Sequence record: PZ583741.1
DNA length: 64,000 bases
Origin: a phage
Reading direction: 5' to 3' (one strand)
In this document: in pieces, positions 7,596-61,688 of the stretch
Position numbering within the stretch: position 1 is the first letter of the stretch
Layout of the letters: each line of letters starts with the position of its first letter
Notes under the pieces: model-generated
Database searches by the model: none
Told to the model about the DNA's origin: nothing
The model's input: the letters and a program-made list of their open reading frames with translations, nothing else
Position numbers and translations under genes: made by a program

Positions 7596-7720
7596 GCCGC
7601 TGCCGCCATGCGAAATGTCAGGAATGCCACAACAGGAGGATGTGATTCTCACCGAAGCTGAGTGGCGCAAGGTGGCAAGAGTGCAAATCATGTTCCGCAA
7701 ACTTGCTGAGGATGTACTAA

Positions 7721-8074
7721 ATGAGATGGGCTATTAAGCATAAATCAGGCATGACTCTGTTTGTTACATCGGATGAGTTTATTGCCAATAACCGTAGAAA
7801 GATGGGATGGATAGTGGAGGAAGTGAAGATGACTAGTAGAGAGCAGTTTGAGCTCCAATGCAGAAATGGGTTGATCAATGGCGGATTAGCAGTGTTTGAA
7901 AATGGTGTTTACGCTTCCGAATTAACAAGAGCTGTCTGGGCTGGATGGAAAGCATCGCGCGCAGCAATTGAAATTGAATTGCCAGAGGAAGAAAGTTTGG
8001 GATGCTACGCTATTTACTATGCAGAAGATGTTATTGAGGCAATTGAACAATCAGGCTTAAAGGTGAAAAAATGA
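7721..8074 (+). CDS. hypothetical protein
   Basis: 117-aa ORF. Confidence 0.5.
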   Translation: MRWAIKHKSGMTLFVTSDEFIANNRRKMGWIVEEVKMTSREQFELQCRNGLINGGLAVFENGVYASELTRAVWAGWKASRAAIEIELPEEESLGCYAIYYAEDVIEAIEQSGLKVKK

Positions 8075-8397
8075 TTATCCAACTAAACGACATTATGAAA
8101 GCAGACATCATTAAGCTTGAAGATTATGACATGCAACTAGCATTTGAAATCGAAACTGTTGAACGCCAACTGCAATATGCGGATAAGAAGAATGATCGCA
8201 TCTGGCATGAGAAAGCACTTAAGGCACGCGATCACATGAAGCGCACGCGAGCACTCATTAAAACGCGACTGGATAAGCTGTATTACGGCGAGGAGCGCAT
8301 GCTGCATGGAGCGATTCTGGCGCAAATCCGCAAGGAAATGCCGATTGGAAAATTCATGTCATACGTTCACCGGGCAAAGCAGGAGGCTGGGTTATGA
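8071..8397 (+). CDS. hypothetical protein
   Basis: 108-aa ORF, AAGGTGA RBS. Confidence 0.5.
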   Translation: MIIQLNDIMKADIIKLEDYDMQLAFEIETVERQLQYADKKNDRIWHEKALKARDHMKRTRALIKTRLDKLYYGEERMLHGAILAQIRKEMPIGKFMSYVHRAKQEAGL

Positions 8398-42187: not shown

Positions 42188-42206
42188 CTGATTTATAATA
42201 ATTAAT

Positions 42207-42290
42207 GCGGCTAGGGGGCACCCGAAAAGCGACTCATCACCGCCTGCCGCATTCACTTCAATGATGCCCTGATGAGGAATCTATATATGG
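42207..42290 (+). promoter_or_regulatory. conserved 5' leader element, copy 2 (same hairpin/SD arrangement as 4280..4370)
   Basis: aligned by eye to copy 1. Confidence 0.5.
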
Positions 42291-46222: not shown

Positions 46223-47461
<1,239 letters not shown>

Positions 47462-50557: not shown

Positions 50558-50640
50558 GTGAGTTAACAATCTGGTTTATCGCAGGTCTGATTACTTGGGC
50601 TTACTTTTTAATCGTTTAGATTGAGCTTGTTAAAAAGAGC

Positions 50641-50669
50641 TTGCATCACTGACAGGAATTATCTAATAT
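50641..50669 (+). promoter_or_regulatory. sigma70-like promoter (TTGCAT - 17 bp - TAATAT) upstream of tRNA
   Basis: hexamers and spacing read from sequence. Confidence 0.4.
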
Positions 50670-50838
50670 TAACCACGTAGACAAACGAGGCCACCAGGTG
50701 GCAACGGCGCACGGAGCGCACTACACGGCAAGTCCGTAGCTCATTAAGTAGCGTATGCGGCATTAAGACCTAGCGCAAATAGGCAGATTAATCGGCTGTA
50801 TCAGGCAGCCCCGGAGCCGTAACCGGGACTCATTCAAA

Positions 50839-50916
50839 GCTCTGCTAGCTCAATTGGACAGAAGCAACGACCTTCTAAGTCGCAGGTTACTGGTTCGAAT
50901 CCAGTGCGGAGCGCCA
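50839..50916 (+). tRNA. tRNA-Arg (anticodon UCU), CCA encoded
   Basis: 7-bp acceptor stem, GG in D-loop, anticodon loop CUUCUAA, T-loop TTCGAAT, 3' GCCA. Confidence 0.75.
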
Positions 50917-50931
50917 ATAAAGGAGTTCATT

Positions 50932-51114
50932 ATGTGGGATGTGAAGTTGTCAATTCGCTTAATGGGCCGCTCGTGCAAGAATTGCACTCAAGAATACATC
51001 GCGTCAGTTGCCGCAATCAGCGCTGAGGATGCGGTAGCGAAAGTAAAGGAGATGTCAGGCGCTGACCCTGACACCCACAAATTCCTGGTAGCTTACGTTC
51101 GTGAGCAAAAGTAA
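50932..51114 (+). CDS. hypothetical protein (60 aa)
   Basis: AAGGAG RBS; track ORF 50854 overlaps the tRNA so start moved. Confidence 0.45.
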   Translation: MWDVKLSIRLMGRSCKNCTQEYIASVAAISAEDAVAKVKEMSGADPDTHKFLVAYVREQK

Positions 51115-51154: not shown

Positions 51155-51184
51155 TTTTAGCCCTCGCTTGAGGGCTTTTTTTCG
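51155..51184 (+). terminator. rho-independent terminator
   Basis: hairpin agccctcgcttgagggct plus T6. Confidence 0.6.
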
Positions 51185-51225: not shown

Positions 51226-51732
51226 ATGAGCAAAGCAGCATTAAAGATGGGTGAGGGAAATTTCAAGGCGCTCTACAACAAGAAGTATGGCGACATTGCT
51301 ATGGTGGCAATCAACCGCAAGTACACGCCTGAGGAAGTTTTCGATTTCGCCGTTAGATACTTCTCCTGGGCTGAGAGCGAGGCAATTAAGGCTATTGAGA
51401 CGGCTGCTTTCCAGGGTGTGGTTAGCGAGAGCCTCGTACACAAGCCTAGAGTATTCACCTTAACTGGGCTGGCGCTCTTTATGGGTGTCAATATCAATAG
51501 ATTCGCTCGCTGGCGTACTGAGGCTGGATACTCTGATGTGATGGAATTCATTGATAACGTTATTTACGAGCAGAAGTACCAGCTTGGTGTCGCAGGCATC
51601 ATCAACTCTACCATCGTTGGTAAAGAGCTAGGAATTGATAAGCCGCAGGAGATTAAGATTAGCAACAACTCCACAGCTAACGATGTTGACAGTATGAAGG
51701 AAGCACTTGAGTCCGTGATCAGTAAGCTATAG
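51226..51732 (+). CDS. terminase small subunit
   Basis: 168 aa, HTH-like TLTGLALFMGVNINRFARW; AAGGAGG RBS; upstream of large terminase. Confidence 0.6.
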   Translation: MSKAALKMGEGNFKALYNKKYGDIAMVAINRKYTPEEVFDFAVRYFSWAESEAIKAIETAAFQGVVSESLVHKPRVFTLTGLALFMGVNINRFARWRTEAGYSDVMEFIDNVIYEQKYQLGVAGIINSTIVGKELGIDKPQEIKISNNSTANDVDSMKEALESVISKL

Positions 51733-51800: not shown

Positions 51801-52313
51801 ATGAATTGGCATGATTATTTTGAATACAAAGATGGGAAGATTTACTGGAAAGATTACGATAGCGAGAAGCTTGGAAGGAGAAGGATACAGCGAAGATTCA
51901 TAGGGAAAGAGGTTGGCGGCATTGATAAAAGCCTAGGGTATGTTAGGGTAAACATGCCTGGTAAAAAATATTGGGTTCATAGAATAATCTGGGAAATGCA
52001 TAACGGAGCAATACCAGAAGGTATGCAAATTGACCATATAAATCATGTTAGAAATGATAACAGGATAGAAAACATTAGGTTAGTTACAATTCAGGAAAAT
52101 AGAAAGAATCAGTCAATAAATTCTAGGAATAAGACCGGGGTTACCGGAGTCTGCATAGTATCTAGGACTGGCAAGTATGTAGCTCAAATAAAAAAGGATG
52201 GAGAGAATATTCACTTGGGATTCTTTGATAATATTCACGACGCATCGATTGTCAGGGCGAGGGCTGAATTTATTCTTGGGTATCATAAAAACCACGGGAG
52301 GAAAGATGAGTGA
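51801..52313 (+). CDS. HNH homing endonuclease with AP2 domain, between terminase subunits
   Basis: HRIIWEMHNGAIPEGMQIDHINH...DNRIENIRLV; C-terminal GYHKNHG. Confidence 0.85.
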   Translation: MNWHDYFEYKDGKIYWKDYDSEKLGRRRIQRRFIGKEVGGIDKSLGYVRVNMPGKKYWVHRIIWEMHNGAIPEGMQIDHINHVRNDNRIENIRLVTIQENRKNQSINSRNKTGVTGVCIVSRTGKYVAQIKKDGENIHLGFFDNIHDASIVRARAEFILGYHKNHGRKDE

Positions 52314-57253: not shown

Positions 57254-57280
57254 CTAACCCGCTTCGGCGGGTTTTTTATT
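57254..57280 (+). terminator. rho-independent terminator (UUCG loop)
   Basis: aacccgcttcggcgggtt plus T6. Confidence 0.6.
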
Positions 57281-57362
57281 GCCTATCATCTCATCATTGC
57301 GTGGTCTAAAAACTCGTGTATAATGAACACGTAGACACCTAACTGAAAAGGAACAATAAAGA

Positions 57363-58304
57363 ATGGCCATTAAATTTGATGCAGAACAAGCAAAAATCAC
57401 CGCTCATCTCGAGCAAATGGGCGTAGACAAAGCTGATGCCGCTGGTATCTGGACCGTTAAGCAACTGACCGCCAATCTGGCACGTGCTTACGAAAAAGAA
57501 TATCCAGACAACTCCGTTGTTAATATCTTCCCTGTAACCAATGAAATCCCAGGTCATGCGAAATATTTCGAATATCCAGAATTTGACGGCGTTGGCATTG
57601 CTCAGATTATCGCTGATTACTCTGACGACTTGCCGCTGGTTGATGCGTTTATGACAGAGAAACAAGGTAAAGTGTTCCGCTTCGGTAACGCGTTCCTGAT
57701 CTCTACTGATGAAATCAAAGCTGGCGCTGCTACTGGTCAATCGCTGTCATCTCGTAAGCAGGCGTTGGCATTCGAAGCGCACGATAACCTGTTGGATAAA
57801 CTGGTATGGTCCGGCTCTACACCGCACGGCATTCCTAGCGTATTCGACCATCCGAACATCAACAACGTTGTTGCTGGTACGTGGAACTCCGCAGCTGCCG
57901 CCATGACTGATATTACCGCACTTATTGATGCAATCGAGACTTCGACTAATGGCACTCACACCGCAACTGATATTCTGCTGCCTGCTTCCGCTCGCCGCTT
58001 GATGCAAGAGCTGGTTCCTAACACCTCTATCAGTTACGCGCAGCTGTTCGCCACCAACAACTCGGGTATCAATCTGCGTTACCTTCAGTTCCTGGATAAC
58101 TACGATGGCGCAGGCGGCAAAGCTGCTCTGGCTTTTGAGAAGGATGCATTAAATATGTCTATCGAGATCCCGGAGGCCACTAACGTACTTCCTGGTCAAA
58201 TGAAGGATTTACATATCAAGTACCCCGTAACCTCTAAGGCTACAGGTTTGATTTTATATCGTCCTCTGACGATGGCGGTAATGAAAGGCATTACCTACGA
58301 GTAA
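57363..58304 (+). CDS. major capsid protein
   Basis: 313 aa; own promoter and strong terminator. Confidence 0.65.
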   Translation: MAIKFDAEQAKITAHLEQMGVDKADAAGIWTVKQLTANLARAYEKEYPDNSVVNIFPVTNEIPGHAKYFEYPEFDGVGIAQIIADYSDDLPLVDAFMTEKQGKVFRFGNAFLISTDEIKAGAATGQSLSSRKQALAFEAHDNLLDKLVWSGSTPHGIPSVFDHPNINNVVAGTWNSAAAAMTDITALIDAIETSTNGTHTATDILLPASARRLMQELVPNTSISYAQLFATNNSGINLRYLQFLDNYDGAGGKAALAFEKDALNMSIEIPEATNVLPGQMKDLHIKYPVTSKATGLILYRPLTMAVMKGITYE

Positions 58305-61344: not shown

Positions 61345-61664
61345 AACGAGCGGTGTATCTACAGTACCAGTCAGAGCCAACTGATGCCGAACTGGAAGCT
61401 ATTGGGATGCGCCGCTCTGATTACGAAGACGAAGAGCCTGAGGTTTTGCACTTTGACGACAACATGATGAAGGCGTGGGACATTTATTGCTCAATGGCTA
61501 CGCAGTGGAGAGTCGGAGCTAACGGAGCTACAGGCCTAGATTACAACGTGCTAAACTTCCTCTTTAGAGTGTATAATGTTTCTGAAGAAGAATTGGTACT
61601 CAGCGATTTACGCATCCTTGAAGCTAAGGCTCTTGAGATGATGGATAACCTGAGAAAAAAATAA
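61338..61664 (+). CDS. tail assembly chaperone extension (GT-like, reached by -1 frameshift)
   Basis: -1 frame ORF open from slip site to 61664, no ATG of its own. Confidence 0.45.
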   Translation, partial: KLKRAVYLQYQSEPTDAELEAIGMRRSDYEDEEPEVLHFDDNMMKAWDIYCSMATQWRVGANGATGLDYNVLNFLFRVYNVSEEELVLSDLRILEAKALEMMDNLRKK

Positions 61665-61688
61665 CCCGCTTCGGCGGGTTTTCTATTA
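61661..61688 (+). terminator. terminator/attenuator hairpin (same sequence as 57256..57273)
   Basis: aacccgcttcggcgggtt followed by ttctatt. Confidence 0.4.

Follow-up and report, generated by a model that had tools for sequence, protein, structure and literature searches.

A putative structured RNA element ahead of the packaging genes in T1-like phages

The window analysed here is the whole 64-kb stretch of record PZ583741.1. Between positions 50641 and 50916 it carries a promoter, a non-coding leader and a tRNA-Arg gene. Comparison with related phages indicates that the leader, positions 50670–50838, very probably represents a structured RNA element that is shared and conserved throughout the Drexlerviridae. 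The T1-like phage concerned makes up the last ~16.6 kb of the window. Homology to phage vB_Ec-G8 begins at ~47404 and runs at ~96% identity over the phage part, and the 1-kb surroundings of the leader and tRNA are ~92% identical to vB_EcoD_SU57. Judged by sequence, the DNA from ~47.4 kb to the window end is that of a Braunvirinae coliphage (Rtp-like, T1-like; Drexlerviridae). The parts of the locus are as follows, where H denotes a hairpin and A2 and A3 denote alignments.

50641–50669, plus strand: sigma-70-type promoter read from the sequence, TTGCAT (50641–50646), 17-nt spacer, TAATAT (50664–50669)
50676–50689, plus strand: predicted single-stranded 5' end CGUAGACAAACGAG, consensus CGU[A/G][A/G]AC.(A/U)A(A/C)GAG
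50690–50702, plus strand: H1, GCCAC-CAG-GUGGC, 5 bp, supported by covariation
50703–50706, plus strand: linker AACG between H1 and H2, invariant in A2 and A3
50707–50719, plus strand: H2, GCGC-ACGGA-GCGC, invariant inside Braunvirinae
50734–50760, plus strand: H3, an interrupted stem CCGU..GCU-CAUUAAGU-AGC..GCGG, Braunvirinae-specific
50769–50783, plus strand: H3b, CCUA-GCGCAAA-UAGG, Braunvirinae-specific and absent from phages TR2 and ES
50795–50809, plus strand: H4, GCUGU-AUCAG-GCAGC, directly abutting H5
50810–50827, plus strand: H5, CCCGG-AGCCGUAA-CCGGG, with the conserved loop A..C(C)GUAA
50828–50838, plus strand: conserved tail ACUCAUUCAAA, its 3' end at the predicted RNase P site 50838/50839
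50839–50916, plus strand: tRNA-Arg(UCU), reading AGA, with an encoded CCA end (ARAGORN; RF00005)

An earlier reading of the letters alone (the sequence-only reading) had proposed a sigma70-like promoter 170 nt 5' of the tRNA. The promoter is present in the sequence as claimed, with 170 nt between the end of the −10 element and the start of the tRNA. It matches 7 of 12 consensus positions, which is below the threshold of a simple promoter scanner and explains its absence from the scanner's list. An A-rich stretch, GTTAAAAAGAG, lies just 5' of it. The site is almost invariant among 27 relatives. In T1, NBD2, RAD2, phiJLA23 and loci from IMG/VR the same site is stronger, reading TTGAC[CG]-17/18-TAnnnT, often with TG before the −10 element; the T1 copy was called by the scanner with 9 of 12 matches and the TG. 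Transcription is predicted to start at ~50675–50677.

The two hairpins that the same reading had quoted were found at the expected sites, as H1 (50690–50702) and H2 (50707–50719). Within the 5' end, A2 and A3 show no variation at GTAG, A and AG, the CGUAGAC..GAG motif is unpaired in models and folds, and it stands at an equal distance behind the −10 element in all lineages. At the other end of the leader, H5 is followed in the window by the tail ACUCAUUCAAA and not by a U-run; no intrinsic terminator is therefore present at the leader's 3' end.

ARAGORN and the Rfam tRNA model (RF00005, 53.4 bits against a gathering score of 29) agree on the tRNA, whose assignment to AGA codons thus holds. With anticodon TCT, it is the sole tRNA that ARAGORN reports in the 64-kb window. 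Neither ARAGORN nor Rfam (E≤10) gave a second tRNA, a pseudo-tRNA or a tRNA-like match in 50620–50838, in keeping with the earlier statement that the leader does not fold as a second tRNA. The longer leaders of Rtp, AugustePiccard and JulesPiccard likewise gave no tRNA-like match. The leader has no acceptor stem, and the H4 loop, 5–7 nt long, is not conserved in sequence.

Conservation and covariation of the leader

The leader matched 89 phage records, and a tRNA-Arg stands straight behind it in 18 of the 18 Braunvirinae loci fetched. Alignment A2, comprising 27 distinct Braunvirinae sequences and a seven-helix structure, was compared with shuffled sequences and with controls in which the structure was slid along the alignment. 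Standard pairs fill 99.8% of the pair cells, compared to 90.8% in shuffles. Compensatory changes were seen in 10 of the 30 pairs, dropping to 0 or 1 when the structure was slid by 1–3 columns. H1 is paired in 100% of cells with four of its five pairs compensatory, its arms reading GCCAC/GUGGC, CCAUC/GAUGG, CUAGC/GCUAG or ACCAC/GUGGU. H3 is also 100% paired; one of its pairs changes from G-C to A-U and another appears as U·G, C-G or U-A. Three of five pairs are compensatory in H4 (arms GCUG/CAGC or GUCG/CGAC, including a change from U·G to A-U) and two of five in H5 (arms CCCGG/CCGGG or GCUGG/CCAGC). H3b never varies in A2, so that covariation speaks neither for nor against it. U·G pairs occur in H3 in 16 sequences and in H4 in 25. 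Each would be a C·A mismatch on the opposite strand, which assigns the structure to the plus strand, the sense of the tRNA.

Leaders of up to 367 nt with extra modules are found in Rtp, AugustePiccard, JulesPiccard, OzMSK and A110b. The additional hairpins sit after H3 and H3b, or arise where H4–H5 is duplicated, as in JulesPiccard (locus L006) and A110b (L015), in which this module is present in tandem. Rtp, AugustePiccard and JulesPiccard share a 58-nt insertion between H3b and H4. Other relatives carry GAGG..CCUC and CCC..GGG hairpin modules behind H3, where a variable-insertion site (~50762 in the window) takes up 15–130 nt of such modules. The length differences among leaders are 17, 43, 50, 61, 83 and 133 nt. 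None is divisible by 3, and a conserved reading frame on either strand is therefore excluded.

We then turned to relatives outside the Braunvirinae. A covariance model (R1) built from the Braunvirinae 5' domain only scored the window copy at 104.8 bits. It matched phage T1 at 7617–7733 (E = 7e-4), within the ST58–ST57 intergenic gap, and Vilniusvirus NBD2 just 5' of a tRNA-Ser(GCU). Weaker matches came from the corresponding gaps in Webervirus RAD2, in Rogunavirus phiJLA23 and Jk06 and in two IMG/VR contigs. Roughly 1,000 phage records, mostly Drexlerviridae, have a terS of the T1 type. Eighty T1-like loci were fetched through alignment of terS, 73 of them non-Braunvirinae. R1 matched 47 of these 73, all 47 on the plus strand and at 686–870 of the fetched loci; with the terS start at 1501, this is 650–800 nt upstream of terS. 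For a second model, R2, the set of lineages was widened but kept incomplete, and the model was tried on those held out. It scored the window copy at 88.3 bits, and with both models all parts fell at the expected coordinates. Syntenic held-out matches were obtained for RAD2 (2e-6), L220, L225 and L226 (~1e-6) and L180 (9e-4), and weaker ones for Hanrivervirus herni (0.004), L212, L215 and L218 (0.06) and Rogunavirus (0.16). Across the 64-kb window and the T1 genome of 48.8 kb, R2 gave no further match at E≤1.

The order of parts is shared across these lineages: the promoter, 6–7 nt, CGU(A/G)(A/G)AC..(A/C)GAG, a short H1, AACG, H2, a variable stretch, two abutting hairpins and a tail such as AACAAUUCAAG (T1), ACAAAUUC (NBD2) or ACUCAUUCUAG (phiJLA23). 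The AACG linker recurs in T1, NBD2, L209, L233, L236, L180, L223 and phiJLA23. H2 has 4–6 bp in the relatives and a loop of ACGGA, GCGGA, GCGAUA or ACGAUU, and the loop of the final hairpin reads A..C(C)GUAA(G) throughout the family. A hairpin of other sequence abuts H5 with a gap of 0–1 nt in T1, L208, L209, NBD2, L233, phiJLA23 and L235.

Alignment by MAFFT across subfamilies misaligned the 5'-core stems; model-fitted alignments and an anchor-based hairpin test were used instead. In the hairpin test, each of 11 distinct H1 stems folded into a hairpin flanked by the GAG and AAC anchors, with a combined shuffle p of 2e-16. Nine H2 stems (GCAUC, GUGAGA, GCAGC, GCGGC, GUAGC, GUGAC, GCCAG, UGCC and GCGC) gave p = 5e-14, and eight distinct H5 stems around the conserved loop gave a combined p = 3e-15. 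In A6, the family alignment fitted to the covariance-model structure, 95.7% of cells are paired compared to 64.7% in shuffles; compensatory change is seen in 15 of its 16 pairs, including 4 of 4 in H2. In seven lineages, single-sequence folding recovered the terminal hairpin as well as H1 and H2. On this comparison, the element occupies a fixed site between an upstream block of small ORFs and the packaging genes, and H3 and H3b are Braunvirinae additions to its conserved core.

Three further candidate features of the RNA were set aside. Kissing of the H2 loop (ACGG) with the H5 loop (CCGU) is broken in DTL, TR2, ES and T1. GGA loops of the CsrA type occur in H2 alone and are missing from DTL and T1. 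The resemblance of GCUCAUUAA in H3 to a boxA is confined to Braunvirinae. A fourth candidate, a closing helix GUAG/CUAC or a 12–64 pairing, has some support: the combinations seen were A-U, G·U and G-C with one exception, but GUAG is invariant and the all-against-all covariation scan was too noisy.

In collection-wide pattern scans, a 14-base pattern reported 120 stretches, almost all of them chance matches with only L021 real. Longer patterns reported 8 viral, 20 metagenome and 6 genome stretches, ~14 of them true and all from close Braunvirinae. Near-identical Braunvirinae coliphage sequence, leader and tRNA included, also occurs under non-enterobacterial host labels, in MG065688 ('Campylobacter phage A110b'), PP134917 ('Pseudomonas phage PsgS01F', H24) and a 46.7-kb contig of a Nitratidesulfovibrio liaohensis assembly (L168). 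These three records are probably contaminants or carry mislabelled hosts.

Two entries near the element are likely annotation problems. The start of the herni (L183) gp51 CDS, 1704–2006, overlaps the R2 match at 1658–1749. In TR2 (L003) a CDS at 999–1235, upstream of the leader, is labelled 'transcriptional repressor' without evident basis.

The tRNA and the slot behind the leader

Downstream of the tRNA the window continues as follows.

50920–50926, plus strand: ribosome-binding site (RBS) AAAGGAG, preceding the 60-aa ORF
50932–51114, plus strand: 60-aa ORF, phrog_2919 (PHROGs, E = 8e-29)
51159–51183, plus strand: intrinsic terminator AGCCCUCGCUUGAGGGCU followed by U7, from a terminator scan
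51226–51732: terS, Pfam GP3_package, with its own promoter TGCTATAAT
51801–52313: HNH endonuclease ORF between terS and terL, Pfam HNH_3 (E = 8.5e-22)

The 60-aa ORF had no match in Pfam. Together, the promoter, leader, tRNA, ORF and terminator make up a self-contained unit of ~510 nt.

The tRNA sits exactly between the leader's tail (..AUUCAAA) and the RBS of the 60-aa ORF (AUAAAGGAG). Elsewhere this interval is filled differently, or is closed. ARAGORN found 0 tRNAs in the whole T1 genome; most T1-like loci carry none either, and outside the Braunvirinae almost none of the fetched loci does. The tail leads directly into the RBS of an ST57-type ORF in T1, L208 and L209, and into a homologue of the window's 60-aa ORF in L179, L180, L233, L210 and Webervirus. 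In such tRNA-less phages the element is predicted to form the 5' end of the small-ORF transcript. Where this cargo slot behind the tail holds tRNAs, its contents in other lineages are Arg-CCU, Ser-GCU, Trp plus Arg, Arg plus Val, or six tRNAs. The first of these, tRNA-Arg(CCU), follows the leader in TR2 and ES, and the last is found in the IMG/VR locus L235 (320–967; Arg-CCT, Ser-TGA, Ser-GCT, Asn, Trp and Met). The L235 element is itself diverged, with the promoter TTGCAT-17-TATAAT and an H5 reading GCCGG-AUUCCGUAA-CCGGC.

Changes are also seen among tRNAs of one anticodon. BEK3 (L018, 910–986) has the same leader followed by a quite different tRNA-Arg(UCU) sequence, so that behind this leader one tRNA has replaced another. 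A third tRNA-Arg(UCU) sequence occurs in IME542 and MM01, whose leader has an extra 3' hairpin. The pattern in these three phages points to cassette exchange of the tRNA, as far as sequence can tell. The presence of the element without a tRNA in T1 and most relatives, and the varying identity of the tRNA where there is one, mark the tRNA as cargo behind a pre-existing RNA. The choice offered by the sequence-only reading, a pre-tRNA leader or a small RNA derived from one, accordingly falls short, since the element is independent of the tRNA.

In L225, L223, L180, Hanrivervirus and Webervirus, all of them tRNA-less, a terminal hairpin and U-run are followed by an RBS and AUG. L225 has a 9–10 bp GC-rich stem with U8, and Hanrivervirus has U7. 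These hairpins look like intrinsic terminators in the predicted folds. A simple terminator scanner misses such long-loop terminal hairpins, which were identified from folds and direct reading. The U-run is absent from lineages with tRNAs and from T1.

As to the tRNA itself, AGA supply is a plausible role. In 15 phage ORFs of the window, AGA and AGG occur at 8.8 and 4.9 per 1000 codons and jointly make up 29% of Arg codons. E. coli uses these codons several-fold less, and the codon-usage comparison suggested earlier thus came out as expected. In DTL (L009) the CDS at 929–1189 (ORF 26) overlaps an unannotated tRNA at 914–991, another likely annotation problem.

Possible roles of the element and its closest systems

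No Rfam 15 family, riboswitches and known small RNAs included, matched the leader (E≤10), either in the window or in those of twelve relatives, T1 among them; the only nearby match, YrlA at 21 bits against 69, overlaps the Rtp tRNA. Our literature searches found no description of a T1-family RNA or transcriptome. In the annotated records inspected the region is never marked as RNA, being left blank (200–460 nt) or overlaid with ORFs. We class the leader as a new RNA family whose general kind is familiar, that of phage promoter-proximal leaders and tRNA-linked non-coding RNAs.

A cis-acting regulatory leader is a possible, still tentative, account of what the element does. Host RNA polymerase would start at ~50676 and transcribe the leader, tRNA and 60-aa ORF up to the terminator at 51159–51183. 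RNase P would then cut at 50838/50839, as general tRNA biology suggests, and free a leader of ~163 nt. A factor may read the invariant unpaired motifs, namely the 5' CGUAGAC, AACG, the H2 loop and the H5 loop, and would thereby govern the amount of transcription or translation that runs from the strong promoter into the cargo slot. A role in cis is favoured because the element always lies between the promoter and co-oriented downstream genes, because its 3' end is often a terminator that closely precedes the ORF and because the T1 tail is predicted to pair with the RBS. For the explanation as a whole, a Drexlerviridae RNA element with a cis-regulatory role, we consider the chances about even.

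Several points weigh against that explanation, some concerning the evidence and others the proposed role. The folding energy of the window leader (−46.5 kcal/mol compared to −45.4 in shuffles, z = −0.25) is uninformative and the difference not significant; the earlier description of the leader as structured gains no support from this measure and is justified by the covariation instead. Alignments A6 and A8 were fitted to the model structure, and the segment ends in the hairpin test were chosen by the analyst. Counting cells inflates the tally of independent events, given the relatedness of the sequences and the possibility that hairpins recombine as blocks. Neither the window nor any tRNA lineage has a U-run at H5, so that control of termination is not the role here. 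RNase P cleavage would part the leader from the ORF, which disfavours control of translation in cis. H3, H3b and the H4–H5 duplicate, the expansions found in Braunvirinae, resemble a stable or scaffold RNA more than an attenuator. Lastly, antiterminator-like complementarity was found only ad hoc in L225 and is not conserved in L223.

A trans-acting small RNA, with the released leader as the functional product, is doubtful in itself and nearly as likely as a cis leader. RNase P could release it in the window phage, and intrinsic termination could do so where relatives have a U-run; cleavage of the A/U-rich tail by RNase E is another route. The 5' end or loops would then pair with RNAs of the host or the phage, or titrate a protein. 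The element has its own strong promoter and is conserved, and an invariant single-stranded 5' end followed by hairpins is the layout of small RNAs with a 5' seed. Some lineages have a terminator-type 3' end with U7–U8, the element is fully conserved even where a tRNA parts it from the ORF, and its hairpin expansions, including the duplicated H4–H5, are modular. T4 RNAC and RNAD (PMC3014915; PMC9697503) and 3'ETS-leuZ (PMC6191717) offer precedents. However, the T1 group has neither terminator nor tRNA and hence no evident release route, and the element is never a stand-alone gene, being always fused to co-oriented downstream genes. No complement of the 5' motif was found in the 64-kb window, and the window copy lacks the Rho-independent terminator and U-tail of an Hfq-type small RNA.

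Processive antitermination of the put or nut type, in which RNA of H4 and H5 would modify polymerase to pass the terminator at 51159 and later ones, is improbable. HK022 put RNA has a two-stem-loop layout, which H4 and H5 resemble, and the gap between them is 0–1 nt in all lineages. The element is promoter-proximal and stands first in the block of packaging and structural genes, where seven strong plus-strand terminators lie inside 13 kb of late genes. However, own TATAAT or TGnTATAAT promoters stand behind four of the seven, including the one preceding terS, and global antitermination is therefore not required. An RNase P cut at the tRNA would also sever the tether between the RNA and polymerase.

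Still less probable is a site that acts as DNA, for instance an origin of replication or palindromes bound by protein, or a gene for a small protein, whichever its strand. The site is intergenic with inverted repeats, and the CGTAGAC motif recurs right behind a second promoter at 57330, where it could be a DNA-binding or initial-transcribed signal. Yet the arm sequences vary freely while pairing is kept, which is unlike the evolution of a protein operator, and the G·U pairs restrict the structure to the plus strand. There is no GC-skew switch at the leader position to indicate an origin. A pac site was rejected by analogy, the T1 terminal repeat spanning 1–2800 and the element lying at 7617. 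On the coding side, the minus strand is free of stops through the whole leader in T1, NBD2, phiJLA23 and L225. We read this as a composition effect, with indels and compensatory changes breaking any frame. The plus strand is full of stop codons and its indels are not multiples of 3; a leader peptide and a minus-strand ORF were both rejected because of the compensatory changes and the lengths of the indels.

A plain spacer or pre-tRNA 5' leader whose hairpins are incidental would suit the position directly 5' of the tRNA and a folding energy no better than that of shuffled sequence, but it is very improbable and contradicted by the distribution: the element is present with compensatory changes in T1 and most T1-like phages, which are tRNA-less, it is retained while the tRNA is swapped, and it keeps 99.8% of pair cells across 27 distinct sequences.

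Among known systems, RNAC and RNAD (species 1 and 2) are stable small RNAs of unknown role from the T4 tRNA region (PMC3014915; PMC9697503). As in T4, a structured non-tRNA RNA lies beside phage tRNA genes in the window and is presumably co-transcribed with them. In contrast to the T4 RNAs, with which no homology is shown, the T1-family element has its own promoter and core motifs, is mostly free of tRNAs and doubles as an mRNA 5' end. In E. coli, 3'ETS-leuZ is a functional tRNA-precursor spacer that sponges the small RNAs RyhB and RybB (PMC6191717). It too is a non-tRNA piece of a tRNA primary transcript, and the window leader may similarly have a role of its own after processing. 3'ETS-leuZ is on the 3' side, is host-encoded and has known partners, whereas the T1-family element is on the 5' side, phage-encoded and mostly independent of tRNAs.

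The c4 antisense RNA of P1 and P7 (Rfam C4) is an operon-leader RNA that is freed by RNase P and acts on the same operon. Such logic would fit the window phage, but the leader has no Rfam match (E≤10), and no complementary sites were found downstream. The lambda PR'-tR' leader ('6S RNA', Q) is alike in its strong promoter, short non-coding leader and downstream packaging and structural genes, and in the terminator present in several relatives; a possible likeness to HK022 put lies in the two adjacent hairpins. Both differ in that the downstream genes here have their own promoters and the window copy has no terminator; nor was a Q-like factor identified. GOLLD and ROOL are structured non-coding RNAs of phages and prophages, often found beside tRNA genes. 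They differ in length (500–800 nt) and are unrelated in sequence and structure; Rfam gave no match to them.

T1 is a classical coliphage whose relatives are common laboratory contaminants and therapy candidates, and its regulation is almost unstudied. A covariation-supported RNA with a conserved promoter and invariant unpaired motifs offers a concrete point at which that regulation can be tested. In phages, tRNAs are commonly treated as genes for codon supply or anti-defence. Here they occupy a defined expression slot behind a conserved RNA, giving a picture of how small virulent phages gain and swap tRNAs. A further step, to see in the element a new class of regulatory RNA that is common to all T1-like phages and gates a strongly transcribed cargo slot, is unlikely at present. 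Within the same low estimate, this class might comprise riboswitch-like or factor-sensing leaders, or anti-host or anti-defence small RNAs. Were it true, lineages would repeatedly have loaded one to six tRNA genes and small ORFs into the slot, and tRNA acquisition would be organised around an RNA and not random.

The late region and the rest of the window

The gene order from the leader onwards is tRNA, 60-aa ORF, terminator, terS, HNH endonuclease and terL. The HNH ORF looks like a mobile homing-endonuclease insertion because SU57 has terL straight after terS. A terminator followed by a TGnTATAAT promoter is a repeated module of the late region. The terminator hairpin AACCCGCTTCGGCGGGTT is identical at 57256–57273 and 61663–61680, and a near-identical copy closes the leader unit of T1 (L186) at 8320–8337. 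Within 57256–57340, after the terminator, a second promoter (TTGCGT-17-TGTATAAT) precedes the ORF at 57363–58304. The CGTAGAC at 57330 stands behind this promoter at the same spacing as at the leader and has no hairpins after it; T1 has CGTAGAC in a post-promoter position at the leader only. The recurrence may be due to chance or to a shared initial-transcribed signal.

Positions 1–47400 of the window are a different entity, with matches to Salmonella and E. coli phage records. The junction near 47404 may be the seam of two joined records, or the point at which the phage genome physically ends on its left. In the part before it, the GC skew changes sign at ~40 kb, and Rfam placed an int-alpA RNA (RF02996) at 42204–42267 with 42.6 bits.

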